Source: Candidatus Auribacterota bacterium (lineage in GTDB: Bacteria > Auribacterota > UBA6266). From it: a stretch of 10,836 nucleotides of DNA. The notes under the pieces were generated by a model that saw nothing but the letters and a program-made list of their open reading frames with translations, searched no databases and had not been told where the DNA came from. A program made the translations under genes and the position numbers. The stretch spans positions 1-10,836 of the forward strand of contig JAGLRQ010000090.1 of NCBI GenBank assembly GCA_023136205.1, written 5' to 3'. Below are positions 1 through 10,836 of the stretch, piece by piece. Position 1 is the first letter of the stretch. Each line of letters begins with the position of its first letter.

Positions 1-1408
1 TGGCAGCATCACACCACTGGAGATCATCTATAAAAAGTGTCAAAGGATTTTCTTCTCCAGCCAGACAGGTTAAAAATTTACTAAAAAAGCTGTTAAAGCG
101 GTTTTTTGATTCTACCGGCGGCAGCTGCTTGATTTCCGGCTGAGGCCCAATTAATATCTCCAGTTCCGGAATAACATCTGTTATTACTTTCCCGTTAGTT
201 CCGACAGCTTCGAGTATTTTCTGTTTCCAGGCTTTAACCCTTTCATCACTTTCTGTCAAAAATGTCCTGATTAAGTTCCGTAAACTCTGGATCAAGGCAC
301 TGTAAGGAATATTCTTCTGGTAAAGATCGAATTTCCCTGAAGTAAAATATCCCTTGTGTTCCACAATTGGTTTCTGAAGTTCTTGAATCAGGCGGGTCTT
401 ACCAATACCGGGAAGCCCGGAAATAAACGAAGTGCGGAAAGAACCATTAGCTGCTTGACTACATTCATTCAAAATTGTCTTTGTCTCATCATCACGCCCA
501 ACCATTTTTGAAACAAAGGTAACTCTATGGGTATAGTCATACCTGCCCAAAGGAAACTCTGAGACACCCTCTCCGGCTGAATATTCATTACTGCATTGCG
601 AAATATCAGCAAGCAGTCCGGCTCCGCTCTGGTAACGTTTTTCAGGCTGTTTAAGAATCAGCATGGCAACCATCTTACTAACCATTCCGGGAATTTCATG
701 ATTTAATTTACTAACCTCTACGGCCTCTTCCGCCAGATGAAAATGTATTAGTTCCAGAGGATCGAGAGAAAAAAAGGGAAGTTTCCCGGTTAACAATTCA
801 TAAAAAACAATCCCCAAAGAATAGAGGTCGGAAGAAAAACCGACTCTGTGATTTATGCGCCCGGTCTGTTCCGGAGAGGTATATGCCAAAGTCCCCTCAA
901 CAAAAGAATGCTCGTAGATAAAATGGCTTACTTCCCTAACATCAAGGCTGGTTATAAAATCAATTAAACGAATAGTAAGACTTTCAGGATGAATCAATAT
1001 ATTGTGAGGCTTAACGCCCCCATGAATAATTCCGGCTTCGTGAACTTGATGCAGTGCCCGCGCTAATAAAGAACTAATAGTAAAAAAATTATCAAGAGAA
1101 ATTTTCGTTTGGCCGGCGGCCCATTCATTTAGAGGAATACCTTCAAAATAGTCCCTGGCAATAAACTGGATATTTCCTTTTTCCTCAAAAAACAAAGGGG
1201 TTATAAGCAAAGGATTATTTAAAATTTTCAGCTGTTCGACTTTTTGCTGGAAATGCAGTTTTTGATGTTCAGAAAGATATCCTGCTTTTAAAACTTTTAC
1301 AACCAAAGGTTTCTTGGGATGTTTGTTATGAAATGCTTTATAGACAACTGCCTGGGGACTCTCACCAAGCTTTTGGATAACTTGATAATTAGTTAGTTCC
1401 TCAAGCAT
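1..1408 (-). CDS. Ser/Thr protein-kinase-like domain fused to an AAA_16/STAND-type P-loop ATPase. Only the N-terminal ~469 aa are present; the C-terminus runs off the left edge.
   Basis: This ORF is absent from the track because it is open at the window edge. I translated the minus strand by hand from the ATG at 1408. A GGAGGAGG RBS sits at 1416-1423, 7 nt upstream. The reading frame stays open to position 1. Translation: MLEELTNYQVIQKLGESPQAVVYKAFHNKHPKKPLVVKVLK...AGIIHGGVKPHNILI...IRLIDFITS...GTLAYTSPEQTGR...FISGLPGIGKTRLIQELQKP...GKFDLYQKNIPYSALIQSLRNLI...NPLTLFIDDLQWCDAA. This gives a kinase fold (VAIK-like K, SPEQ) followed by Walker A (GLPGIGKT) and Walker B (LFIDDLQW). That arrangement is typical of the large kinase/AAA/GAF/HK-type multidomain sensors. 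Confidence 0.85.
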   Translation of the reverse strand, partial: MLEELTNYQVIQKLGESPQAVVYKAFHNKHPKKPLVVKVLKAGYLSEHQKLHFQQKVEQLKILNNPLLITPLFFEEKGNIQFIARDYFEGIPLNEWAAGQTKISLDNFFTISSLLARALHQVHEAGIIHGGVKPHNILIHPESLTIRLIDFITSLDVREVSHFIYEHSFVEGTLAYTSPEQTGRINHRVGFSSDLYSLGIVFYELLTGKLPFFSLDPLELIHFHLAEEAVEVSKLNHEIPGMVSKMVAMLILKQPEKRYQSGAGLLADISQCSNEYSAGEGVSEFPLGRYDYTHRVTFVSKMVGRDDETKTILNECSQAANGSFRTSFISGLPGIGKTRLIQELQKPIVEHKGYFTSGKFDLYQKNIPYSALIQSLRNLIRTFLTESDERVKAWKQKILEAVGTNGKVITDVIPELEILIGPQPEIKQLPPVESKNRFNSFFSKFLTCLAGEENPLTLFIDDLQWCDAA

Positions 1409-1488
1409 ATTCGTTCCTCCTCCCCCGCGAAACACTTAACGCATCATAACATAAAACCATACAAAAAGAAACACATAGAACCTGACAC

Positions 1489-2841
1489 CTAACTGTTATA
1501 AACAAAAACCTGATTCCTACCCCCTCTCTTAGCGCTATAAAGAGCTTTATCCGCTAAGGCAATCAAGCCTTCCGCGTCTTCGGCATCGTCAGGAGATGAA
1601 GCAACTCCAATACTTATAGTAAGGTCCATTTTCCCCTGCTGGACTAAAAAATCATGTTTCATCATTCTTCTTCTCATACGTTCGGCTGTTTTATAAGCGC
1701 TATCCTTGGAAGTATCAGGAAGCGCGACACAAAATTCCTCCCCCCCATAACGCCCAAGGAGGTCCCCCTGCCTTGCCCTGTCCTTCAAGACAGACGCCAG
1801 TTCCTTCAGTAAAATGTCTCCTACGAGATGCCCATATGTATCGTTGTATCTCTTGAAATGGTCTATGTCAACCATAAGAAAAGAAAGAGGAAGCCCTGTT
1901 TTTTTAGTTCTTAGCAATTCTGAATCTAATCTTTTCATAAAATATCTTCTCAGGTAAAGCCCTGTAAGCCCATCTATAATCGAAAGCTCTTTTATCTTTT
2001 CATAAAGGGATGCCTTTCTTATCTCCAAGCTGGCATCAGCAATAAGAATTTTTACATTATTAAGGGCTTCAAACTCCACATCCCTGAATAAAAGGCCGCC
2101 AAGGACATCTCTTTTATCCACAATAGGAATTGCAATAAGGTTTTTTCCACCTACAATCTCTTCGGGTTCACCGCTCTTAAATGTTCCTTCAGCATCCTCA
2201 TATACTACATCTTTTTGCTTTTTCATAACATCAAGGATACGTTTTTCGTTCTCTTCAAGCTGTTTATCTGCCGCGTTTCCGCTCTTAAGGTCTATTAATT
2301 CAGGGCCGTCCGAATCTTTCATATCTTTATATATAATCATCTTACCGGAGCTAAAATCCGCTATATTTCCTATTGTTCGCGCGCACTCGGTAAAAGTCTG
2401 TTTGCTATCCAGGGTGGAGCTCATAGCTATTAAGCCTGTATAAAGCTTTTTAACTTTATTAACTTCCTCTCTTTTCTTTTCATTTTCAAATTTTTTTACC
2501 CTATAATCAGCTGACATTGCTTCGTACTTTTCACGCGCCTCTCTGTAATCAGAAAAATTAGTTTTTGCCTTCAGCAAATACTTATTCTTATAAAAATACA
2601 GGATAACAATAAGCATTATAAAATAACACATTGTAAGGCCTATAAACCACGGAGCCTCTGTATAAAATACCTCATCATCAAACATCTTGAACATTAAGAA
2701 TATAATCACATGAGAGGAAGCTATGAACGTAATAAGAGATGCCCACCGGAAGCTGTAGAACAACCCTATAGCCATTATTAAAACAGTATAAAAAGGTATT
2801 GCAAAAAACAGATTCAGGCTTAAAGATATTTCCTGATTCAT
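1489..2841 (-). CDS. Membrane-bound diguanylate cyclase (N-terminal TM helices, coiled coil, GAF-like region, GGDEF domain with a GGEEF active site and an RxxD I-site).
   Basis: The track ORF is 1489..2868, but its first codon is TTG. The in-frame ATG at 2841 (MNQEISLSL...) is preceded by GGAG with 5-nt spacing, so I prefer 2841. GGDEF hallmarks are DGLTGLYLRRYF, MVDIDHFKRYNDTYGHLVGD and RYGGEEFCVALP. RQGD lies exactly 5 residues upstream of GGEEF, the canonical inhibitory I-site position. Hydrophobic N-terminal segments are present (LFFAIPFYTVLIMAIGLFY, LITFIASSHVIIFLMF, WFIGLTMCYFIMLIVILYF). Confidence 0.9.
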   Translation of the reverse strand: MNQEISLSLNLFFAIPFYTVLIMAIGLFYSFRWASLITFIASSHVIIFLMFKMFDDEVFYTEAPWFIGLTMCYFIMLIVILYFYKNKYLLKAKTNFSDYREAREKYEAMSADYRVKKFENEKKREEVNKVKKLYTGLIAMSSTLDSKQTFTECARTIGNIADFSSGKMIIYKDMKDSDGPELIDLKSGNAADKQLEENEKRILDVMKKQKDVVYEDAEGTFKSGEPEEIVGGKNLIAIPIVDKRDVLGGLLFRDVEFEALNNVKILIADASLEIRKASLYEKIKELSIIDGLTGLYLRRYFMKRLDSELLRTKKTGLPLSFLMVDIDHFKRYNDTYGHLVGDILLKELASVLKDRARQGDLLGRYGGEEFCVALPDTSKDSAYKTAERMRRRMMKHDFLVQQGKMDLTISIGVASSPDDAEDAEGLIALADKALYSAKRGGRNQVFVYNS

Positions 2842-2934
2842 CTTATCTCCGTATTTCTTATCTGGCAAAAAACAGTATCTCGTCCCCTCCGGGGAGGCTA
2901 CGCTACGCTCCGCACCATCTCGTAGAAAAAGATA

Positions 2935-2955
2935 GTAAAAAACACAGTTTTTTAC
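2935..2955. repeat. Perfect 9-bp inverted repeat GTAAAAAAC-N3-GTTTTTTAC in the spacer between the two diguanylate cyclase genes. It may be a weak intrinsic terminator on the minus strand or a protein-binding palindrome.
   Basis: Read directly at 2935-2943 and 2947-2955. On the minus strand the hairpin is followed by TATCTTTTTCT (2934 down to 2924). The stem is AU-rich, so its stability is low. The existence of the repeat is certain; its function is not. Confidence 0.55.
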
Positions 2956-2996
2956 CCGTGTTAATCTGCGGCCCTTTTTACTTTATTCTTCTTTCA

Positions 2997-4442
2997 TCAC
3001 TGCTTACTTTTGTACAAAATCGACCTGTTTTTCCCCATATCCTTTGCCTTGTAAAGGCTGTCATCTGCCGCTTTAATAAGGCCCTCAGAAGTTTTTAACG
3101 AAGGCGTGTTCTCCGCGACACCCGCGCTGACGGTAACCTTTATGTTTTCCTCTCTTATTAATTCTTCAGAGGACGCAATCGTCCGGCAAATATTTGATAT
3201 GAGCTCCTGTGAGGTTTCACCATCAGAGCCCGGTAAAACTACGGAAAACTCTTCCCCTCCATACCTTGCAACCAATCCCTTAGTGCCTATTAATCTTTGC
3301 AGTTGGGAAGACACATTTTTAAGAATAATGTCTCCCACAATATGTCCATGCTTATCATTAAACAGTTTAAAGTCGTCTATATCCAGCATAATAAGCGAAA
3401 GCGGAACTTTTTTCGTATAGCAATCATCTATAATTTCAGGAAGTTTCGCCCTGAAAAAACCCGCCGTATATAATCCCGTTAATCCATCTCTTATAGCCAG
3501 TTGGGTAGTCGTTTCATAAAGATGGGAGTTATAAAAAGCAAGAGCAGAGAGGTTCGCGATAATAGCCAGAATCCTCAAATCATCAACTGAATAGATATCC
3601 GGGTCTTCATTGCTTATTTTTAATATTCCCATAATCCTGTTACCGGTTATAAGCGGCGAAGCAATAAGGCTCCTTGCGGCACTCTCATATTTCCTCCCGA
3701 ATCTAAAATCCCGATGAAGATCAGCAATGTGAACTGACTGGCGGCTCCTAAATACCCATTGGTTTAACTTATCTTCTTCTAAATAAGTAAACTCTGCCGT
3801 TTTTGCCCTGTGGACATTCATACCACGGAGCTCAAGACGTTTCATATCTTCTCCAAGTAAATATAATTGATACATACCAGGTTTCTGGATAATCTGTATT
3901 GTATTCTTGGTAACTTTTTTAATCAGTTCTTCGTTGTTCAGCGACACACCGATATCTTTTGAAATTTCCCTCAGCTTGGATATTCTTAAAATTTTTCTAT
4001 CAAGAGATTCTTCTAAAACTTTCTCTCTGTTAAATTCTTCAATAAGTGTATTTGTTGACTCATTAATATCATCCGTTTTCATTTTTACCGCGTACTCTTC
4101 AACATGCTCCTTATTCCAGAACTTACACAATAGCCCCCCTATAAATATAAATGCTATTCCGTTAGCCAGAAAGCTCCAATCATGAAATACAAACAACGTA
4201 AACACCGCGACAAGAAAAGCTATTCCTAAAAAGATGCCTCCGACAATATTACCCATAAATAACCATGCGGCACAAATAATAAGCATATAAAAAACCACGG
4301 CAAAATACGCATAGTAATAGTATCCGGCTTTTGTAACTTCGGGGTTATTAAAATAAGCTACTGAAATTGAAAATACAATATAGGTAAGGGCCAGCGCGGA
4401 AATTACAGCAACAACTTTCAAATATCTCTCTTTTAATGCCAC
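2997..4442 (-). CDS. Membrane-bound diguanylate cyclase (multi-TM N-terminus, coiled coil, GAF domain, GGDEF domain with GGEEF, no RxxD I-site).
   Basis: 481-aa ORF with a GTG start at 4442, preceded by GGAGG with 7-nt spacing. GGDEF hallmarks are RDGLTGLYTAGFF, MLDIDDFKLFNDKHGHIVGD and RYGGEEFSVVLP. The I-site position reads GTKG, not RxxD. The N-terminal ~110 aa are strongly hydrophobic (about 4 TM segments). The central region (LYLLGED...IASPLITGNRIMGILKISNEDP) looks GAF-like. The architecture matches the downstream paralog at 1489..2841. Confidence 0.9.
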   Translation of the reverse strand: MALKERYLKVVAVISALALTYIVFSISVAYFNNPEVTKAGYYYYAYFAVVFYMLIICAAWLFMGNIVGGIFLGIAFLVAVFTLFVFHDWSFLANGIAFIFIGGLLCKFWNKEHVEEYAVKMKTDDINESTNTLIEEFNREKVLEESLDRKILRISKLREISKDIGVSLNNEELIKKVTKNTIQIIQKPGMYQLYLLGEDMKRLELRGMNVHRAKTAEFTYLEEDKLNQWVFRSRQSVHIADLHRDFRFGRKYESAARSLIASPLITGNRIMGILKISNEDPDIYSVDDLRILAIIANLSALAFYNSHLYETTTQLAIRDGLTGLYTAGFFRAKLPEIIDDCYTKKVPLSLIMLDIDDFKLFNDKHGHIVGDIILKNVSSQLQRLIGTKGLVARYGGEEFSVVLPGSDGETSQELISNICRTIASSEELIREENIKVTVSAGVAENTPSLKTSEGLIKAADDSLYKAKDMGKNRSILYKSKQ

Positions 4443-4457
4443 CAGCCTTCCTCCATT

Positions 4458-4488
4458 AAAAAAAAGCGAGTGTATTTAATCCACTCGC
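4458..4488 (-). terminator. Rho-independent terminator downstream of the ABC ATPase gene.
   Basis: The minus strand reads GCGAGTG-GATTAAATA-CACTCGC followed by TTTTTTTT. The stem is at 4482-4488/4466-4472 and the U-tract at 4458-4465. It has 7 perfect base pairs, a 9-nt loop and an 8-U tail, and lies 32 nt after the TAA stop at 4520. Confidence 0.85.
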
Positions 4489-4519
4489 GCATATCATTTT
4501 CTTTTAGGATTTTTTGATA

Positions 4520-5623
4520 TTATACAATTGTGTTCTCTGTATCAATATCAAAAAAATGGGCGCCATTCATGTTTAACACAAGTTCCAAATCCTGATTAAC
4601 CTCAGCTTTTTCGTGTGAATTAACCCTTGCTATAAATGGATTTGTTCCGGTATTAAGATAGAGATATACTTCCGAACCCATAGGCTCAATCACCTCAACG
4701 GTAGCGGTAATCGTAGCCTCAGGATCCGCACTTCCCATAAAAAGCTTATCAAATATGTCTTCCGGCCTTATCCCGAAAGTAATCTTTTTACCGGCATAAC
4801 CTGCCAGTTTTGGTGTCATATCATTCACTATTCTCACCTTAAAATTACCCTCATCAAAATAAAGGCCGCCTTTTTCAGCAATAATTGTTCCCGTCATAAA
4901 ATTCATTGGCGGGCTCCCAATAAATCCCGCGACAAATTTGTTCTGCGGATGTTCGTAAAGAGTAATGGGATCCGCTACCTGTTGGATAAAACCGTCTTTC
5001 ATTACTACTATGCGGTTACCCATAGTCATAGCTTCCACCTGGTCATGAGTAACATATATCATTGTAGACTGAAGCCTTGTATGAAGTTTTGAAATTTCAG
5101 TCCTCATCTGAATTCTTAACTTAGCATCCAGATTTGACAGGGGTTCATCGAAAAGGAATGCTTTCGGTTTTCTGACTATCGCGCGGCCTACAGCAACTCT
5201 CTGCCGCTGTCCGCCGGAAAGGGCCCTGGGTTTCCTGTCAAGCAAGGTATTTATGCCAAGAATTTCCGATGCTTCCCGTACCCTCTTCTCTATTTCATCC
5301 TTCGAATACTTTCTAAGCTTTAGCCCGAATGCCATGTTCTTATATACTGTCATATGAGGATAGAGAGCATAGTTTTGAAAAACCATCGCTATATTTCTAT
5401 CCTTGGGGGGAATATTATTAACAATCTGGTTATCAATAGTAATTGAACCCGAGGTAATATCTTCAAGCCCCGCTATCATTCTTAACGTAGTGGATTTCCC
5501 ACATCCGGAAGGCCCGACAAGCACTAAAAAGTCCTTATCAGCAATTTCCAGGTTAGCTTCTTGAACAGCAACTACGTTGCCGGGATAAACTTTTTTTACA
5601 TTTTTAATGACAACCCTTGCCAT
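4520..5623 (-). CDS. ABC transporter ATP-binding protein, carbohydrate-importer type (MalK/UgpC/MsmX family), with a C-terminal regulatory (TOBE-like) domain.
   Basis: 367-aa ORF with an ATG at 5623 preceded by AGGAGG. Motifs present: Walker A GPSGCGKST, Q-loop VFQNYALYPH, signature LSGGQRQR, Walker B AFLFDEPLSNLD, H-loop IYVTHD. The family-typical FIGSPPMNF precedes the C-terminal beta-rich domain. No permease or solute-binding gene is adjacent in this window. Confidence 0.93.
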   Translation of the reverse strand: MARVVIKNVKKVYPGNVVAVQEANLEIADKDFLVLVGPSGCGKSTTLRMIAGLEDITSGSITIDNQIVNNIPPKDRNIAMVFQNYALYPHMTVYKNMAFGLKLRKYSKDEIEKRVREASEILGINTLLDRKPRALSGGQRQRVAVGRAIVRKPKAFLFDEPLSNLDAKLRIQMRTEISKLHTRLQSTMIYVTHDQVEAMTMGNRIVVMKDGFIQQVADPITLYEHPQNKFVAGFIGSPPMNFMTGTIIAEKGGLYFDEGNFKVRIVNDMTPKLAGYAGKKITFGIRPEDIFDKLFMGSADPEATITATVEVIEPMGSEVYLYLNTGTNPFIARVNSHEKAEVNQDLELVLNMNGAHFFDIDTENTIV

Positions 5624-5689
5624 CAGGTTCCTCCTTTAATAAATACAGCGGGCAGACACATTGCCCTTTTACTTCTATCGTCAACACGG

Positions 5690-5742
5690 ATTATAGCACC
5701 TGCAAAACTGAAATGGTAGCACTATTTCTCGCGGATTGTCAA
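5690..5742 (-). promoter_or_regulatory. Candidate sigma70-type promoter(s) for the ABC ATPase gene.
   Basis: The minus strand carries TTGACA (5737-5742), an 18-nt spacer and TACCAT (5713-5718). Downstream there is an extended -10, TGcTATAAT (TATAAT at 5690-5695, TG at 5697-5698), with a poor -35. Motif match only; there is no experimental support. Confidence 0.3.
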
Positions 5743-5861
5743 AGCAATACCGTTTGTACTGCTTGTATATTGTATTTAGTATCCGGTACATAAGGAATTA
5801 AGCTTTTATGTATATCCCCCCGCCATAAATGGCAAGGCTTTCTAACGGAGTAAAAAACCAC

Positions 5862-6797
5862 TTATCTGATCCCTACAGTTTCATCTACAGTACAGCGGCT
5901 GGTTTCCGCGGCCTGCCATTCCTTATATGCTTCTTTCAAATATTTCTTCTGAGTACTGGTGGTGGGAGACTTTTTTGATTTTATATAAAAGTCCAGGGCA
6001 TGGAAATACGCTTTAAGGCAAACATAATATCCCCTGCTTAATTTCTTGCTTATCTGCAACAGCTTATTCCCTAAAACTTCCACATCTTTTATGTTTTTGA
6101 AAGGAGGATTTTCGGGATTATCCCAAACAAGCTCATCCAGTAACTTTGCAAGATATTCGCTGCTTTCCCGCGGAGAAAGCTGTTTCTGGGATCTTTCAAT
6201 TTCTCTAATTCTATCTGCCTTTAACTCTGCTTTTCTTTTAATCATTTCAGCCATTCTATTTCTTCTTTCTTCCCTGGCCATCCACCGGCCTTTATATTTA
6301 ACCAAACCTCTGTTTTTTTGCTGCTCTTCAAATCTTTTCACCAGCTCAGTTTTTTTCTGAAACAATATTTCAAGATTCTTTTTATTTTTCTCAGACATCG
6401 GAATTATTTCATTGATTTTCTCCTGCCTAAACTTCAAAAGGCCGGAACCGGACAAAAATTTCACGTCTTCACCAGTTTCCTCAAGAATTCTGCCGTCAAA
6501 CTCAATACCGTTTTTCATAACAATTTTATCCCGCGCAATACTTTCAGAAATCTCCTTTATCTTTGTAAGAATCAAACGATATTCCGTTGTGGTTATTTCA
6601 CCCTCCGGAATTTCTACCAGCAAATTCTTTTTCTCTGTTTCTTCTTTGATTCCTGTCTTTTCTTTTTCTGCCGGTTTTCTCTCAGGACCCTGCCCCGCCG
6701 CTGACTCTCCGCAAATAGACAACCAACACATAAATACAATACAAAGCAAAAACCCAAATTTTAAGCTGATTTTTTTGTTTCCAGACACAATAAACAT
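5862..6797 (-). CDS. Hypothetical secreted or lipid-anchored protein, K/E-rich with predicted coiled-coil segments.
   Basis: 311-aa ORF. The N-terminus KKISLKFGFLLCIVFMCWLSICGESAAG looks like a signal peptide with a non-canonical lipobox-like LSIC. The rest is highly charged (EKEKTGIKEETEKK, RRNRMAEMIKRKAELKADRIREIERSQ). I recognise no catalytic motif. The start is uncertain: the ATG at 6797 has AAGG directly abutting it, and the GTG three codons in has better spacing. Confidence 0.65.
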   Translation of the reverse strand: MFIVSGNKKISLKFGFLLCIVFMCWLSICGESAAGQGPERKPAEKEKTGIKEETEKKNLLVEIPEGEITTTEYRLILTKIKEISESIARDKIVMKNGIEFDGRILEETGEDVKFLSGSGLLKFRQEKINEIIPMSEKNKKNLEILFQKKTELVKRFEEQQKNRGLVKYKGRWMAREERRNRMAEMIKRKAELKADRIREIERSQKQLSPRESSEYLAKLLDELVWDNPENPPFKNIKDVEVLGNKLLQISKKLSRGYYVCLKAYFHALDFYIKSKKSPTTSTQKKYLKEAYKEWQAAETSRCTVDETVGIR

Positions 6798-6964
6798 CCT
6801 TGGTTATATGGATTATTTAATTCATTTATCTTCTACCACAAATTGGGCGTTTTTGCCATAACTTTCACCCAAAATTCGCGTTAGAAAACAATACTTATCA
6901 AAACACTCTGTAAATATCGCCCTTAGCTAAAAAGTAATGTGACAAAGAAAGGCCGAATGTATAA

Positions 6965-7468
6965 TTACTCCTGGCCTACATACTGGGGAAGTTCGATAAA
7001 ATCCACTGATTTCAAATGCGCGGAATTACATTGAGGACATCGGATTTCCGCACAGAAATTCGCTGTCCTCAAATCCATGGGATCAATTATTTCTCCGGAA
7101 AGAGTCATTATCTTCCATTTCTCTGTATGCTTTCTTTTGTTATAAGAGAGTATTATCTTATAGCCTTCAAACTCTGTTCCGCATTCCAAACACTTGAAGA
7201 ATGCCGTTATATAAAACGCCTTCTTTTTACACTTTGGACATTCTCTGGGAGATGTATTAAAGTCGTCCTCCATCAGAAACTGACACAATTTGCATTCCCA
7301 TATCACAGGCGCTTTAAGTTTTTTCCTTTCCAATAGAACAGGTTTTGCCATCGAGAAAAGAATTGCCAGGCTAACAATCATTATGGCGGTAAGCACCGAC
7401 AAAGGATTAACTTTCTGCTTATTCGTTTTTTGTTTCCGCTTATCTTGCGACTGGGATAATGTTGTCAT
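6965..7468 (-). CDS. Small single-pass membrane protein with two predicted zinc-ribbon modules (four CxxC knuckles).
   Basis: The track ORF is 6965..7525, but it starts on GTG deep inside the upstream gene. I prefer the ATG at 7468 (MTTLSQSQDKRKQKTNKQK...), which overlaps the pseudopilin stop (7440) by 29 nt. No convincing RBS precedes any candidate start, so the start is uncertain. Features are a basic N-terminus, the TM helix LSVLTAIMIVSLAILFSMA, then CKLC-x14-CPKC and CLEC-x42-C-x4-CPQC. Confidence 0.6.
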   Translation of the reverse strand: MTTLSQSQDKRKQKTNKQKVNPLSVLTAIMIVSLAILFSMAKPVLLERKKLKAPVIWECKLCQFLMEDDFNTSPRECPKCKKKAFYITAFFKCLECGTEFEGYKIILSYNKRKHTEKWKIMTLSGEIIDPMDLRTANFCAEIRCPQCNSAHLKSVDFIELPQYVGQE

Positions 7469-8135
7469 CGTTAATGTCAGGTTTCCATTCAACATGAAAA
7501 TCAGCAAATAGATGGTTCGCGCCACCGTTGTGCCGGCGTTCTATTATATTCTCGTAAAAATCAGGGTTGGATTTCCATGCCCCCTGATGAACTACCTCTG
7601 TTTCAGCATCAAAGAGAACTACTATCTCAGAAGGATGGGCAAGGTCATAATAAGCAACCTCTTCTGTATACAGCATCAGATTATACGAATAAGAGATCTC
7701 TACCTTAAACGGCTCATTTGGCGGCGGGTTATCAGCATCCACATTTATGATCATAGGGGTCTTGTCTGAAGGACACACATACAAATCTTCATCTGACAGA
7801 CTGGGAATCAACGTAGCACCCATAGGTTTTGGAACTACAAGAATAACCCATTTGCCGGCTTTTCCGGGGGTAAACGTATATAAATAAGGAGGCCAGGCTC
7901 CATCATGTTCCGTTACGTACATCCCAAAGCCGTATCCAAGCTGTTTTAGATTATTCATGCAAACAGCTCGATTTGCCTTTTCCCTCGCGCCCCGAAAAGA
8001 AGGAATTAGAAATGACGCCAATATAATAATAATTGAGATTGCCACAAGCATCTCAACCAGAGTAAAACCACGCCTCGCGTTACGCGACATGGATAACAAA
8101 TAATAAGTAAAGTTTTTATTTTTGGCTTTTCGCAT
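7440..8135 (-). CDS. Prepilin-type N-terminal cleavage/methylation domain protein of the H-X9-DG pseudopilin family (here H-X9-DF).
   Basis: 231-aa ORF. The class III signal ...NARRG|FTLVEMLVAISIIIILASFLIPS carries the G-F-T-L-x-E motif and a hydrophobic helix. The C-terminal RHNGGANHLFADFHVEW matches the H-x9-D[G] signature of the large PVC-type paralog family (TIGR04294/DUF1559-like). A shorter start at the ATG at 8090 (MSRNARRGFTLVEM) would give a typical 8-residue leader and may be the true start. Confidence 0.9.
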   Translation of the reverse strand: MRKAKNKNFTYYLLSMSRNARRGFTLVEMLVAISIIIILASFLIPSFRGAREKANRAVCMNNLKQLGYGFGMYVTEHDGAWPPYLYTFTPGKAGKWVILVVPKPMGATLIPSLSDEDLYVCPSDKTPMIINVDADNPPPNEPFKVEISYSYNLMLYTEEVAYYDLAHPSEIVVLFDAETEVVHQGAWKSNPDFYENIIERRHNGGANHLFADFHVEWKPDINDDNIIPVAR

Positions 8136-8215
8136 ATGCTGTTAACAAAAACTTCCCGGGGTTCTCCTGTATCTGTTTTTTTCAATACAAACAGGGGCAA
8201 ATGTATTTCCCGATT

Positions 8216-8749
8216 CTATTTTTCACAGGGAAACAGCCTTTTCAGTTCAGCCAATTTTTTCAGCGTCTTCTTTTTATTAAATTCCGCGTCCAGCATTATC
8301 TTCTCAAGCTCATCCACTCCGGACTTGACCTCGTATAAATGCCTAAGCATCTTATTAAAAGACTCTCCTATTTCAGGAACAGCATCATCATCTCTGAACT
8401 GTATTTTATCGGGAAGGTTTCCTTCAGACATCTGATCAAGATACATCTCTATCCTGAAAAGGGCCCCGGCAACCCTGTGGGAAATCATAATGCTCAGAAG
8501 AAAACAAACCAAACACGCCACAATAGCGGGAGCAATAAGATACTTGATTAAGGTAAGATTAAGGCCTTCTATCGATTCACTGGATATTACACCCTCATCC
8601 TGAGCTGTCGTTATGAGGTAATTTATACACGTGTTGTAAACTATAAGCGCGGTAACGAGCATCGATACAATTACAATCCACATCACAAATATGGAGTATT
8701 TGTACTGAAAGCTCTTTAAAAAATAATTTTTAAATTTGCGCTTTTGCAT
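8216..8749 (-). CDS. Stand-alone HAMP-domain membrane protein (two TM helices, a short external loop, HAMP, and a short coiled-coil tail with no output domain).
   Basis: The track ORF 8216..8842 begins at a TTG and would read through the riboswitch and its terminator, so I reject that extension. The ATG at 8749 gives MQKRKFKNYFLKSFQYKYSIFVMWIVIVSMLVTALIVY (TM1). After about 25 aa comes LIAPAIVACLVCFLLSIMI (TM2). The HAMP-like region is SHRVAGALFRIEMYLDQMSEGNLPDKIQFRDDDAVPEIGESFNKMLRHL. Confidence 0.8.
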   Translation of the reverse strand: MQKRKFKNYFLKSFQYKYSIFVMWIVIVSMLVTALIVYNTCINYLITTAQDEGVISSESIEGLNLTLIKYLIAPAIVACLVCFLLSIMISHRVAGALFRIEMYLDQMSEGNLPDKIQFRDDDAVPEIGESFNKMLRHLYEVKSGVDELEKIMLDAEFNKKKTLKKLAELKRLFPCEK

Positions 8750-8776
8750 GTTGTTCCGGATTATACCATATAACTC

Positions 8777-8810
8777 AAAAATTAACCCATTCTTTCCCCG
8801 GAAGAATGGG
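8777..8810 (-). terminator. Intrinsic terminator forming the expression platform of the c-di-GMP-I riboswitch.
   Basis: The minus strand reads CCCATTCTT-CCGGGGA-AAGAATGGG followed by TTAATTTTT. It is a perfect 9-bp stem (8802-8810 with 8786-8794), a 7-nt loop and a U-rich tail at 8777-8785. It lies between the aptamer and the ATG at 8749. Confidence 0.8.
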
Positions 8811-8824
8811 CACGCCCAGACGCC

Positions 8825-8910
8825 ACCCCAGCAACCAGACAACCCTATCTTCCCAGACTTAGGCTCCCGGCTTTGCGTCCTACCCTTTCGGAGTAGTTTG
8901 CCTTTTTCCG
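8825..8910 (-). promoter_or_regulatory. c-di-GMP-I (GEMM-I, type 1) riboswitch aptamer.
   Basis: The minus-strand RNA reads AAAAAGGCAAACUACUCCGAAAGGGUAGGACGCAAAGCCGGGAGCCUAAGUCUGGGAAGAUAGGGUUGUCUGGUUGCUGGGG. It shares the GEMM-I signature GGCAAAC...CGAAAG...GGACGCAAAGCC...GCCUAA with the Vibrio cholerae Vc2 aptamer, as I recall that sequence. Hand fold: a basal helix GGCAA/UUGCU; a P1 hairpin CUAC(U)CC-GAAA-GGGUAG with a GNRA tetraloop; and a P2 of CCGGGAGCC/GGUU(G)UCUGG enclosing CCUAAG/UAGGG. That last element is one nucleotide off the 11-nt GAAA tetraloop receptor CCUAAG/UAUGG. P2 is capped by GUCU-GGGA-AGAU. The core spans 8830-8902. Confidence 0.82.
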
Positions 8911-8941
8911 CATTAACTACTTTCTAACTCCCTACACCTGT

Positions 8942-8970
8942 ATTATACCATAGATTACGGTATAATTTAA
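8942..8970 (-). promoter_or_regulatory. Candidate promoter of the riboswitch-led transcript (extended -10 TGgTATAAT).
   Basis: On the minus strand, TATAAT is at 8942-8947 with TG at 8949-8950. A weak -35 TTAAAT lies at 8965-8970 with a 17-nt spacer. The predicted TSS is about 30-35 nt upstream of the aptamer GGCAAAC. Motif match only. Confidence 0.4.
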
Positions 8971-9069
8971 GGGCCCCTACATACTTTTTGTTCTTAGATA
9001 AGCTGCTGCGGTATCGATAGTTAGATTTTTTAAACCAATTATCACAAAGTCGTTAATGTTAAAAAACAT

Positions 9070-10017
9070 TCATTTACCGGTTTTGGGCATTCTGCGTTTT
9101 GGTATAGTAAAACAAAATGTACTCCCCTTTTTTATTTTAGATTCAGCCCAAATCCTGCCGCCATGCAGCTCAACAATTTTTTTGCTGATTGAAAGGCCTA
9201 AACCTGTACCTTTTTCTCCAGGGCCGTGTACTCTGTCAAACTGCTGGAATTTATTGAACAGTTTGGACACGTCACCTCCGGACATACCCACACCCGTATC
9301 CGAAACGGATATCATTACTGAACCATCCGCGTCGTCATCCGCCCTTACCGTTATTTTTCCGTTTACCGGTGTAAACTTAAGGGAATTGCTAACCAGATTT
9401 GTTAATATCTGAATAAGTTTATCACTGTCCGCGTATATGCGGGATACCTTTTTGGATAAACTTGTCTCAAGAACAATCTTTTTTTCTTTTGCTTTTGATT
9501 GAAAATCTTCAACTATTTTTTTAATAAATTTAGCTGTATCAACAGAAGATCTTTTAAGTTCCATCTCTCCGGCTTCCAGTTTAGATATATCCAAAAGACC
9601 ATCAATAATCCTGGTTAAACGAGCAATATTTTCAAGCACTTGAGAAAGAATGCTAACCTGTTTCTCATTAACATCCCCCAATATTCTATCACTAATAAGC
9701 GCGACGCCTTCCTGTATAATGGTAAGAGGCGTGCGTAATTCATGCGACACCGTAGCGACAAAATCTGATTTTAGGTCGTCAAGCCTCTGAAGTTCTCTAT
9801 TTTTAGTTTCCAGCTCTTTATAAAGCAGCTTAATATTCTCGTTGGTTTTTTTTAGGCCCCAGGTTTGTGTTTTCAGCGCATCCTTAACTTTTTTAAGTTC
9901 TGCTTTCAGTTTTTTAACACTGGCCCGCGATTCTTTAAGTTGCGCGATCCGAGTATTTAGAACCTTTATTTCTTCTATAAACTGCTCTCTGGTTTTTCCT
10001 CTGGCAATCACTTTCAA
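9070..10017 (-). CDS. Cytoplasmic sensor histidine kinase (N-terminal coiled coil, HisKA, HATPase_c; no TM segment or recognisable sensor domain).
   Basis: 315-aa ORF. Motifs: H-box FVATVSHELRTPLT, N-box ILTNLVSNSLKFT, G1 VSDTGVGM, G2 GTGLGLSISKKIV. The N-terminal ~75 aa are heptad-rich (IEEIKVLNTRIAQLKESRASVKKLKAELKKVKDALK). The track start at 10017 is TTG directly abutting GGGAG. The GTG at 10011 has 6-nt spacing from that RBS and is the more likely start. Confidence 0.9.
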   Translation of the reverse strand: MKVIARGKTREQFIEEIKVLNTRIAQLKESRASVKKLKAELKKVKDALKTQTWGLKKTNENIKLLYKELETKNRELQRLDDLKSDFVATVSHELRTPLTIIQEGVALISDRILGDVNEKQVSILSQVLENIARLTRIIDGLLDISKLEAGEMELKRSSVDTAKFIKKIVEDFQSKAKEKKIVLETSLSKKVSRIYADSDKLIQILTNLVSNSLKFTPVNGKITVRADDDADGSVMISVSDTGVGMSGGDVSKLFNKFQQFDRVHGPGEKGTGLGLSISKKIVELHGGRIWAESKIKKGSTFCFTIPKRRMPKTGK

Positions 10018-10031
10018 CTCCCTTCTTAATT

Positions 10032-10391
10032 TTATATAAGCCTCTTAATTGCTTCAATCAATGATTTGTAGTCCATAGTCTTTACAGTAAAATCATCCGC
10101 GCCTGATTTTTTGACCTTTAAAGCATCAACAGCATCAACCTTGCTTGTAACCACAATAATTGGTATCTTAATGTTTTTAGTACTTTTTAGAATTCGGCAC
10201 ACCTGGTGGCCATCCATATCCGGAAGCATAATATCTAAAACAATTAAATCCGGCTTATTCTGATATGCCTGTTTTATACCGGAACTTCCATCAATCGCGG
10301 TTATAACATCATACCCCTCATACACAAGCCTGTCTCTCAGTGTGGCTAAAATGTTGGGTTCATCATCAATAATAAGAACCTTCTTTGGCAT
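10032..10391 (-). CDS. Single-domain response regulator (CheY-like receiver only).
   Basis: 119-aa ORF with an ATG at 10391 preceded by GAGGAG. Receiver hallmarks: acidic pair IIDDE, phospho-acceptor LIVLDIMLPDMDG, VVTSK, and the conserved Lys in FTVK. There is no output domain. The stop lies 14-20 nt from the kinase start. Confidence 0.9.
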   Translation of the reverse strand: MPKKVLIIDDEPNILATLRDRLVYEGYDVITAIDGSSGIKQAYQNKPDLIVLDIMLPDMDGHQVCRILKSTKNIKIPIIVVTSKVDAVDALKVKKSGADDFTVKTMDYKSLIEAIKRLI

Positions 10392-10403
10392 TGTTATCTC
10401 CTC

Positions 10404-10836
10404 TCACAAATGTTCAACAACTGTTTCCTGTCTATAAACCTCCGAAGCTTTTTCAATTAATTCTTTCGGCGACATAGCTTCATCCGGATATGCCGCGGCA
10501 CCAAAGGTTATTTTCACGGACTCCGGAATTTTTTTGGCTTTAACCAGATCCAAAAACCTGCTGATAACTGCTTTCGTTAATCTATCCACCAGCATCTTTA
10601 CATCTTCTCTGCCGGCACCGTTCAGGGAAAATGCGATTTTATTTTCTTTATATCTCACTGCCAGATCCGTCCTGCCGCGCAGTATTTTTCCTGCCGCCTC
10701 TTCTAATTCAGATAAAATATCTTCAGTCTTGCCGGCCCCAAACAATTTCTTAATCTCATTAAAATTAAGTATGTCTATTAAAATAAGCAACATGGTAGAT
10801 TGTGTGTCTTTGGCCTTTTGCAGGCTGTCATCCAGG
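10404..10836 (-). CDS. Degenerate (catalytically inactive) GGDEF-domain protein. Only the C-terminal portion is present; the N-terminus runs off the right edge.
   Basis: The track gives 10404..10793 from an internal ATG, but the frame stays open upstream to the window edge (...LDDSLQKAKDTQSTMLLILIDILNF...). It aligns by eye to the GGDEF fold. LLILIDILNFNEIKKLFG corresponds to llliDiDhFKxiNDxyG. AVRYKENKIAFSL corresponds to vaRyGGDEFavll, with GGDEF replaced by KENKI. ITFGAAAYPDEAMSPKELIEKA corresponds to vtvSiGvAxyp...ellxxAD. The I-site position reads GRTD, not RxxD. Confidence 0.7.
   Translation of the reverse strand, partial: LDDSLQKAKDTQSTMLLILIDILNFNEIKKLFGAGKTEDILSELEEAAGKILRGRTDLAVRYKENKIAFSLNGAGREDVKMLVDRLTKAVISRFLDLVKAKKIPESVKITFGAAAYPDEAMSPKELIEKASEVYRQETVVEHL

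Follow-up and report, generated by a model that had tools for sequence, protein, structure and literature searches.

The 10.8-kb stretch of Candidatus Auribacterota DNA analyzed here (contig JAGLRQ010000090.1, positions 1 to 10,836; hereafter the window) carries, directly behind a class I cyclic di-GMP (c-di-GMP) riboswitch, a three-gene unit for which we propose, at about even chances, a role as an accessory operon of a type IV filament system resembling a type IV pilus (T4P) or type II secretion system (T2SS), including a model in which two promoters serve the operon and the riboswitch acts as an OFF switch. The core of this operon would be a pair consisting of a DUF1559/H-X9-D pseudopilin (gene 2) and a small membrane protein with four CxxC motifs (gene 3, hereafter ZnR), translationally coupled through a 29-nt overlap, with the gene for a small HAMP-like protein with two transmembrane (TM) helices (gene 1) ahead of the pair in Auribacterota. 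Coordinates refer to the window, and all described features lie on its minus strand:

8942-8950, minus strand: P1, extended -10 motif TGGTATAAT upstream of the aptamer
8827-8912, minus strand: c-di-GMP-I (GEMM-I) aptamer, RF01051, 66.4 bits against a gathering threshold of 35, E = 1.4e-11
8796-8857, minus strand: predicted antiterminator, a 24-bp helix proposed from folding energy and alignment pairing
8775-8811, minus strand: intrinsic terminator from a pattern scan, with a 10-bp stem GCCCAUUCUU/AAGAAUGGGU, a 7-nt loop and a U-tract
8760-8768, minus strand: P2, extended -10 motif TGGTATAAT, ending 10 nt before the ATG of gene 1
8216-8749, minus strand: gene 1, open reading frame (ORF) of 177 aa with two TM helices, a HAMP-like segment and a C-terminal helix
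7440-8135, minus strand: gene 2, ORF of 231 aa encoding a prepilin-type DUF1559/H-X9-D pseudopilin
6965-7468, minus strand: gene 3, ORF of 167 aa encoding a single-pass membrane protein with four CxxC motifs (ZnR)

An earlier note on this DNA, made from the sequence alone, had described a c-di-GMP riboswitch followed by three co-oriented genes, and this layout was confirmed by the RF01051 match, the terminator hairpin and identical calls for genes 1-3 by gene callers on eight public contigs. The triad was seen in at least eight loci of one genomic context (type A, or context A) and in a separate second one (type B, or context B), and the proposed overlap of the last two genes proved to be real, since the 29 nt shared by genes 2 and 3 are preserved in all type A relatives. 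In context A, the triad is preceded by the genes for PilM, PilO, an unnamed protein, PilQ, an ExeA-like ATPase, a 216-aa protein, a PAS-histidine kinase-GGDEF hybrid, a response regulator and a histidine kinase, and from the triad onward, genes 1-2-3 are followed by a gene encoding 308 aa, an ATP-binding cassette (ABC) ATPase gene and a pair of GGDEF genes; the same arrangement is found in relatives with a gene 3 that shares 73-93% identity with that of the window. In context B, whose genes 3 and 2 share 41-48% and 69% identity, respectively, with those of the window, genes 1-2-3 are tightly packed or overlapping and follow SufC, SufD and GH9 genes. The triad is thus supported as a conserved, syntenic unit in Candidatus Auribacterota type A loci and in the type B context, and its presence in a second, unrelated context indicates that the three genes travel as a unit. 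The recurrence that the earlier note had wished to see checked was therefore found in all Auribacterota relatives recovered, and again behind a GH9 gene. Furthermore, its suggestion that the triad was undescribed agrees with our literature search, which found no account of the three-gene unit or of a pseudopilin/ZnR pairing.

The assignment of gene 2 to the prepilin-type proteins is well supported. The N_methyl model PF07963 (31.5 bits against a cut-off of 21.2), TIGR02532 (25 bits against 16.3) and PF07596 (DUF1559, SBP_bac_10; 28.3 bits against 23.3) all exceed their cut-offs, the last with aligned model positions 3-55 only. Gene 2 carries a class III signal peptide, with predicted cleavage at G23|F24 within RRG|FTLVEMLV and a Glu at +5, and pilins from the PDB align to it from their residue 1 at F24. 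Among its 476 homologues, distant ones share approximately 30% identity over 85% of the length, and many are PF07596 proteins; in an alignment of 24 sequences, E28, C59, N62, Q65, C121, R201, H202 and D212 are invariant. The earlier designation as an H-X9-DG pseudopilin stands for the prepilin-type DUF1559 part, but the H-X9-DG motif as such was not recovered, as TIGR04294 reaches only 16.4 bits against a cut-off of 19. This shortfall is due to the replacement of the Gly by Phe in the clade of the window, where the motif reads H-X9-DF and the H-X9-D core is retained. Judging from these models and conserved residues, gene 2 is a true DUF1559/H-X9-D homologue with a variant motif. With the DUF1559/H-X9-DG family of Planctomycetota and other bacteria of the Planctomycetes-Verrucomicrobia-Chlamydiae (PVC) group, it shares the class III signal peptide, the CxNNLKQ motif, the conserved Cys pair and the C-terminal RH-X9-D, whereas it differs in being short (231 aa), in carrying D-F for D-G and in scoring below the TIGR04294 cut-off. 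Moreover, that family consists of many scattered paralogues, whereas gene 2 has a fixed ZnR partner and a HAMP-like gene.

Gene 3 encodes a basic N-terminal tail, one TM helix and eight invariant Cys in four CxxC motifs. The earlier note had called it a membrane zinc-ribbon protein, of which the single TM helix and the four invariant CxxC motifs hold, but every Pfam and NCBIfam model, including those of zinc-ribbon families, stayed below its cut-off. Its AlphaFold2 (AF2) model, with a predicted local distance difference test (pLDDT) score of 79, shows the TM helix at residues 22-40 and a beta-rich domain; Foldseek searches against the PDB returned local rubredoxin-knuckle matches to rubrerythrin (36 residues, root mean square deviation 2.3-2.7) and no whole-domain match. 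An exhaustive hidden Markov model (HMM) search of 1.84 billion representatives recovered only 15 relatives, which share an architecture of a (K)QNP motif, a TM helix, CxxC-x14-CPxC-x12-CxxC, approximately 45 residues and CPxC. By this measure, gene 3 belongs to a rare, unannotated and undescribed family. The labels HypA or RpoP that source databases attach to ZnR members look like a spurious transfer from generic zinc-ribbon models.

Prepilin-type genes are neighbors of ZnR family members in three groups, namely Auribacterota, Armatimonadota and an unclassified high-GC lineage, and all distant members whose contigs are long enough to display a context adjoin prepilin-type genes. In L033/L034, two H-X9-DG pseudopilin genes come after the ZnR gene. 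The Armatimonadota locus L031 lines up genes for a PilM-like, a 312-aa and a Secretin_N protein, followed by two ZnR genes and one for a pilin. Furthermore, the type A relative L011 harbors, upstream of the triad (1287-3661), a second cassette of a secreted CBM4/9-like gene, a 331-aa DUF1559 pseudopilin and a second ZnR gene (ZnR2), with a 26-nt overlap. As the pair recurs independently in L011, L033 and L031, pseudopilin and ZnR constitute a recurring core, and we take the pair to be the evolutionary core of the unit, with a function that we infer. For the context comparison, P0130 and P0132 were left out since their contigs are too short; the 20-sequence ZnR alignment was too diverse for locus scans, and scans with closer ZnR alignments returned only 2 genome loci and 1 short metagenome locus.

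A broader proposal, which we put forward only tentatively as a possibility, is that the four-CxxC proteins are a new multi-phylum family of dedicated partners of DUF1559/H-X9-DG pseudopilins and that the pair would form a self-contained type IV filament unit, sometimes near carbohydrate-active genes. For comparison, TfpY, TfpZ and FimB of Pseudomonas and Dichelobacter are encoded by pilin-accessory genes that adjoin pilin genes. What ZnR presumably shares with them is that the gene for a small membrane protein stands right behind a pilin gene and is expressed together with it; we take the two groups to lack any sequence relationship, and ZnR differs by its eight-Cys, beta-rich domain, which has no whole-domain match among solved structures. 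A ZnR lipoprotein with two tandem eight-Cys domains (P0135, from a Phycisphaerales metagenome-assembled genome (MAG)) hints at a periplasmic location of the ZnR domain, and two further members, P0133 and P0134, carry an additional N-terminal zinc ribbon ahead of the TM helix. Among side observations on these neighborhoods, the pseudopilin of the second cassette in L011 carries an acidic insert of EEDGEG repeats, and in type B loci, the gene directly upstream of the triad encodes a GH9 glycoside hydrolase. The GH9 and CBM4/9-like neighbors hint at a link to polysaccharide degradation.

A connection to pilus machinery became apparent on the 55.9-kb parent scaffold of the window, of which 20.7 kb were analyzed as locus L001. 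PilM, PilO, the PilQ secretin and the ExeA-like ATPase are encoded on the same strand approximately 3.3 to 9.2 kb upstream of the aptamer, with PilM (TIGR01175) and PilQ (TIGR02515) above their NCBIfam cut-offs approximately 5.5 to 9.2 kb upstream of the triad. The earlier statement that no secretin or other machinery lies nearby is therefore accurate within the 10.8-kb window but not on the scaffold, where PilM, PilO, PilQ and the ExeA-like ATPase follow upstream; it was an artefact of a window that was too small, and the framing of the unit as stand-alone is wrong at contig scale, with T4P-type assembly genes close by. Auribacterota MAGs were reported to encode type IV pili (PMC9324843). The upstream cluster (L001, 85-5999) additionally gave matches below threshold to two Akkermansia pilus families, Amuc_1101 (PilM-like) and Amuc_1098 (outer-membrane); it also encodes an AAA_22 ATPase close to TIGR03015 (PEP-CTERM/ExeA-like), as well as two small proteins whose C-termini resemble T2SSB/CdsD_C.

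The aptamer match is full-length (model positions 1-87 of 87) and represents the sole Rfam element in the window. In the cmscan alignment, AAAAAGGCAAAC, the GAAA loop and GACGCAAAG all agree with the RF01051 consensus; the ligand-contacting positions are those of the Vc2 structures. A G, not an A, lies directly 5' of the GC in GGCAAAC, and a G at this junction position distinguishes c-di-GMP from cGAMP aptamers. P1, whose motif is invariant across the four riboswitch-bearing loci, is presumed to start the riboswitch transcript near 8935. A side observation concerns the leader, where AGUAGUU (8915-8921, minus strand) is complementary to AACUACU (8892-8898), the 5' strand of the first aptamer hairpin. 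All unconstrained folds, those of L012 and L016 among them, are predicted to contain this pairing, and the leader element could be an anti-aptamer element that tunes ligand sensitivity.

Downstream of the aptamer, a terminator-like hairpin (8811-8785, minus strand) folds at -12.3 kcal/mol and is followed by the T-tract TAATTTTT; in relatives, its stem is retained through a U-A to U-G change plus one extra pair. The predicted antiterminator pairs the 3' half of aptamer stem P3 (8857-8830) with the linker and the 5' arm of the terminator (8824-8796), so that antiterminator and aptamer are mutually exclusive. Its folding energy of -29.7 kcal/mol compares with -18.3 +/- 2.5 kcal/mol for shuffled sequences, of which 0 of 2000 were as low. 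In the alignment, 94.4% of the cells of the helix pair versus 37-60% when the partners are slid, five one-sided substitutions retain pairing, and in L012 and L016, the inner helix belongs to the minimum free energy (MFE) structure. Before the 3' arm of the terminator exists, the antiterminator fold lies within 1.2 kcal/mol of the MFE, and the aptamer fold is approximately 10 kcal/mol worse at that stage, ligand energy excluded. We also looked for the features of an ON design, a classical P1 helix flanking the aptamer and a terminator overlapping the 3' end of the aptamer, and found neither. From these folds, the riboswitch is predicted to be a transcriptional OFF switch with the usual OFF layout.

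Whether this switch governs the whole triad depends on P2, a motif overlooked in the earlier note that sits between the riboswitch terminator and the ATG of gene 1. The motif TGNTATAAT has three matches in the 20.7 kb of L001, all on the coding strand, intergenic and just upstream of a feature, namely before the aptamer (P1), 10 nt before the ATG of gene 1 (P2) and before the ABC ATPase gene. The box TTTTTGAGTTATATGGTAYAAT, which holds the extended -10 motif, precedes the ATG of gene 1 in all type A loci, including the riboswitch-less L009 and L011. In the type B locus L027, the sole TGNTATAAT match in 20.5 kb is TGATATAAT, which is located 8 nt before the ATG of gene 1 and has a TTGATA -35 element at 16 nt. 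Moreover, the first 24 codons of gene 1 differ between contexts A and B at 8, 5 and 15 sites in codon positions 1, 2 and 3, respectively; as the differences fall mostly on third positions, the annotated ATG is probably real and the P2 mRNA is probably leaderless or near-leaderless. P2 is thus very likely the native promoter of the triad, and since it lies downstream of the terminator, the riboswitch can gate P1 transcripts only.

It is unlikely, in our assessment, that the riboswitch is instead the principal gate, with the TGGTATAAT before gene 1 forming part of a 5' untranslated and translation-initiation region and the triad being expressed only through read-through from P1. Riboswitch, terminator and triad are indeed contiguous and co-oriented, and the distance from U-tract to ATG is only approximately 25 nt in both the window and L012. 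However, the same box stands before gene 1 in the riboswitch-less L009 and L011 and in type B loci, where another promoter would then be needed, and TGNTATAAT is rare, occurs upstream of features only and, in identical form, serves as the presumed P1. The distribution of the aptamer bears on the same point. RF01051 was found at 66-70 bits in L001, L012, L014 and L016 and is restricted to loci in which gene 3 is at least 92% identical to that of the window; it was absent at E<=1 from L009 and L011 (80% and 73% identity relatives). Outside context A, two loci were scanned, L018 and the type B locus L020, and neither gave a match at E<=0.1. Whether RF01051 precedes the triad in relatives, a question posed in the earlier note, is therefore answered positively for L012, L014 and L016, but not for L009, L011 and L020. 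Of the cassette described there as riboswitch-gated, the co-oriented upstream riboswitch stands, but only the closest relatives have it, and a conserved promoter-like box follows the terminator.

Relatives of the window also retain traces of how the riboswitch came to abut the triad. In L016, approximately 110 nt separate the terminator from P2, and this interval includes a scar of approximately 75 nt that matches the 3' end of the ZnR2 gene of L011. In the window and in L012, this stretch is missing, and the point of joining lies between two TTTTTGAG repeats. The scar and the TTTTTGAG junction together indicate that the riboswitch reached the triad through deletions, and it may once have preceded a lost ZnR2 cassette; in L011, the cassette is present and the riboswitch is absent. 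These traces are also what would be expected if the riboswitch were an evolutionary leftover of the lost CBM-like/pseudopilin 2/ZnR2 cassette that mainly yields a short terminated RNA and has little or no effect on the triad. L016 keeps the 3' end of ZnR2 between terminator and P2, the window and L012 have lost even this scar by deletion between the TTTTTGAG repeats, and L011 still holds the cassette. We nevertheless consider such a leftover improbable: three diverged lineages have kept aptamer, antiterminator and terminator intact, and the observed substitutions turn wobble into Watson-Crick pairs, which suggests purifying selection. In addition, L011 has the cassette without the riboswitch, leaving the ancestral link unproven.

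The least defined member of the triad is the product of gene 1, which the earlier note had identified as a HAMP protein, an identity with weaker support than stated there. The Pfam HAMP model (PF00672) scores 16 bits against a cut-off of 25 (E = 0.015), with an alignment spanning model positions 2-51 of 53 at about residues 89-138, and matches at E<=1 in only 1 of 6 gene 1 orthologues. The NCBIfam models WalK, MtrB, CtpM, AdeS and PmrB align at their TM2-HAMP regions, all far below their cut-offs, with WalK as the best sensor-kinase or methyl-accepting chemotaxis protein alignment (E = 9e-6). In the AF2 model, helices at 57-108 and 125-155 are connected by a loop at 109-124; with a pLDDT of only 56, this model was too poor and was dropped from the fold search. 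A PDB profile search with the gene 1 orthologues found no HAMP-containing chain and only a chance bromodomain match. As in HAMP domains, the segment is predicted, at low confidence, to follow TM2 directly and to comprise a helix, a connector of approximately 15 residues and a second helix, and it carries G-N-L and E-I-G...F-N-x-M motifs; it differs in an EIG-FN spacing that is approximately three residues shorter than the consensus and, in comparison to HAMP domains of kinases and chemoreceptors, by the lack of an output domain and the score below the Pfam cut-off. We therefore rate gene 1 as HAMP-like, with its assignment to the HAMP family not established. The closest relatives of gene 1 in a word-indexed search and its type A orthologues stem from Auribacterota, and the type B orthologues stem from MAGs labelled only as bacterium; a HAMP-like gene was found with the triad only, that is, in type A Auribacterota and type B loci.

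We likewise doubt that the triad is a sensory module in which the membrane-anchored DUF1559 protein binds a periplasmic ligand and the HAMP-like protein signals to the soluble kinase, response regulator and GGDEF proteins: the two TM helices, HAMP-like segment and C-terminal helix of gene 1 without an output domain, an adjacent 313-aa kinase without TM or sensor domain, a window dense in GGDEF, GAF and PAS genes and the name SBP_bac_10 of PF07596 would fit this arrangement, but type B loci hold the triad without the soluble kinase and the response regulator, the HAMP match stays below its threshold, and distant ZnR/pseudopilin pairs lie beside PilM and secretin genes without a HAMP-like gene.

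For the accessory operon that we favor, we therefore propose the following scheme. The conserved P2 would serve as the operon's own promoter and probably give a leaderless mRNA, and in the sub-clade of the window, a c-di-GMP-I riboswitch with its own P1 and terminator would be placed directly upstream. At low c-di-GMP, the 3' half of the aptamer would pair with the 5' arm of the terminator to form the antiterminator and allow P1 read-through into the operon, while with c-di-GMP bound, the aptamer would fold, the terminator would form and P1 transcripts would end. With P2 active and P1 under an OFF switch, c-di-GMP would lower expression without abolishing it. The pseudopilin would then be cleaved by a prepilin peptidase encoded elsewhere and handled by the nearby PilM/PilO/PilQ machinery, with ZnR as its dedicated membrane partner, either a chaperone or an adaptor.

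Several observations weigh against this scheme. Next to the pseudopilin gene of L018, a relative at 46% identity, there is neither a ZnR nor a HAMP-like gene, and genomic context was seen for three distant ZnR lineages only. According to the positive-inside rule, the charges flanking the ZnR helix are about equal across the family and permit no topology call, so that a periplasmic contact with the pseudopilin is not established. Furthermore, no prepilin peptidase, assembly ATPase or platform gene was found in the 20.7 kb of L001. Regarding the switch, the terminator fold is favored even without ligand (-53.1 versus -47.5 kcal/mol), and the argument for an OFF switch is therefore a kinetic, co-transcriptional one; the unconstrained full-leader MFE contains the terminator whether or not the aptamer is formed, which places the choice between ON and OFF beyond thermodynamics alone. 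Two-sided covariation was not observed, since the riboswitch alignment holds only three distinct sequences. Finally, the two promoters and their transcription starts were assigned from sequence motifs only.

The closest parallels to the predicted control come from Clostridioides difficile, in which the class II riboswitch Cdi-2-4 lies upstream of pilA1 and acts as an ON switch, the class I riboswitch Cd1 lies upstream of flgB, and all seven functional class I c-di-GMP riboswitches are OFF switches (PMC6366702). These systems share with the window a c-di-GMP riboswitch and terminator before a type IV pilin-family gene or surface-structure operon, and the OFF logic of the class I switches (PMC6366702) is the same as that predicted for the window. 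However, the pilin switch of C. difficile is a class II ON switch, whereas that of the window is a class I, predicted OFF switch; the gene in the window encodes a DUF1559 pseudopilin and not a major pilin; and the window has a second promoter downstream of the terminator, with the riboswitch limited to one sub-clade. Neither the riboswitch as such nor c-di-GMP control over pilin-like genes in general is new. Less common is the arrangement of a complete promoter-aptamer-terminator unit upstream of a second, conserved promoter, and the deletion intermediates surviving in relatives document how a riboswitch can land before a new operon.

DUF1559/H-X9-DG pseudopilins are among the largest paralogue families of PVC-group bacteria, and our literature search found no functional description of these proteins. 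In Planctopirus limnophila, 68 DUF1559/H-X9-DG paralogues are present, two of which are essential, with function unassigned (PMC10632474). A fixed, translationally coupled partner that recurs across phyla would offer a concrete, testable hypothesis for DUF1559 pseudopilins and, if true, a first experimental handle on this very large family.

A further gene of 308 aa follows the triad:

5862-6788, minus strand: gene 4, 308 aa with a lipoprotein-like N-terminus and long charged helices or coiled coil

Gene 4 follows gene 3 throughout the type A loci, and type B loci lack it. A pattern scan found no terminator in the 176-nt gap between gene 3 and gene 4, and gene 4 may belong to the operon as a fourth gene, though in context A only. 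Pfam and NCBIfam searches returned no family match for it. In L009, an AsmA/DUF748 gene comes after the 308-aa gene 4 orthologue. In L003 (3844-4734), a strain-level variant contig, gene 3 was called as a shifted ORF of 139 aa, and the ZnR HMM matches the truncated ORF only; this altered call could be a frameshift or an assembly error.

Two further readings were dropped: a defense system, as PADLOC gave no matches, and a link between the triad and ABC ATPases (MalK-like in the window, an ABC ATPase in L033), as these belong to different families and are missing from some contexts. The surrounding regions (window 1-4442 and 9070-10836; L001 6104-9066 and 13694-20696) are dense in genes for c-di-GMP and two-component signaling on one strand. 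They comprise the PAS-histidine kinase-GGDEF hybrid, a stand-alone response regulator and a sensor-less soluble histidine kinase, as well as GAF-GGDEF and TM-GGDEF genes and a gene of 1755 aa that combines Ser/Thr kinase, AAA, GAF and histidine kinase domains.

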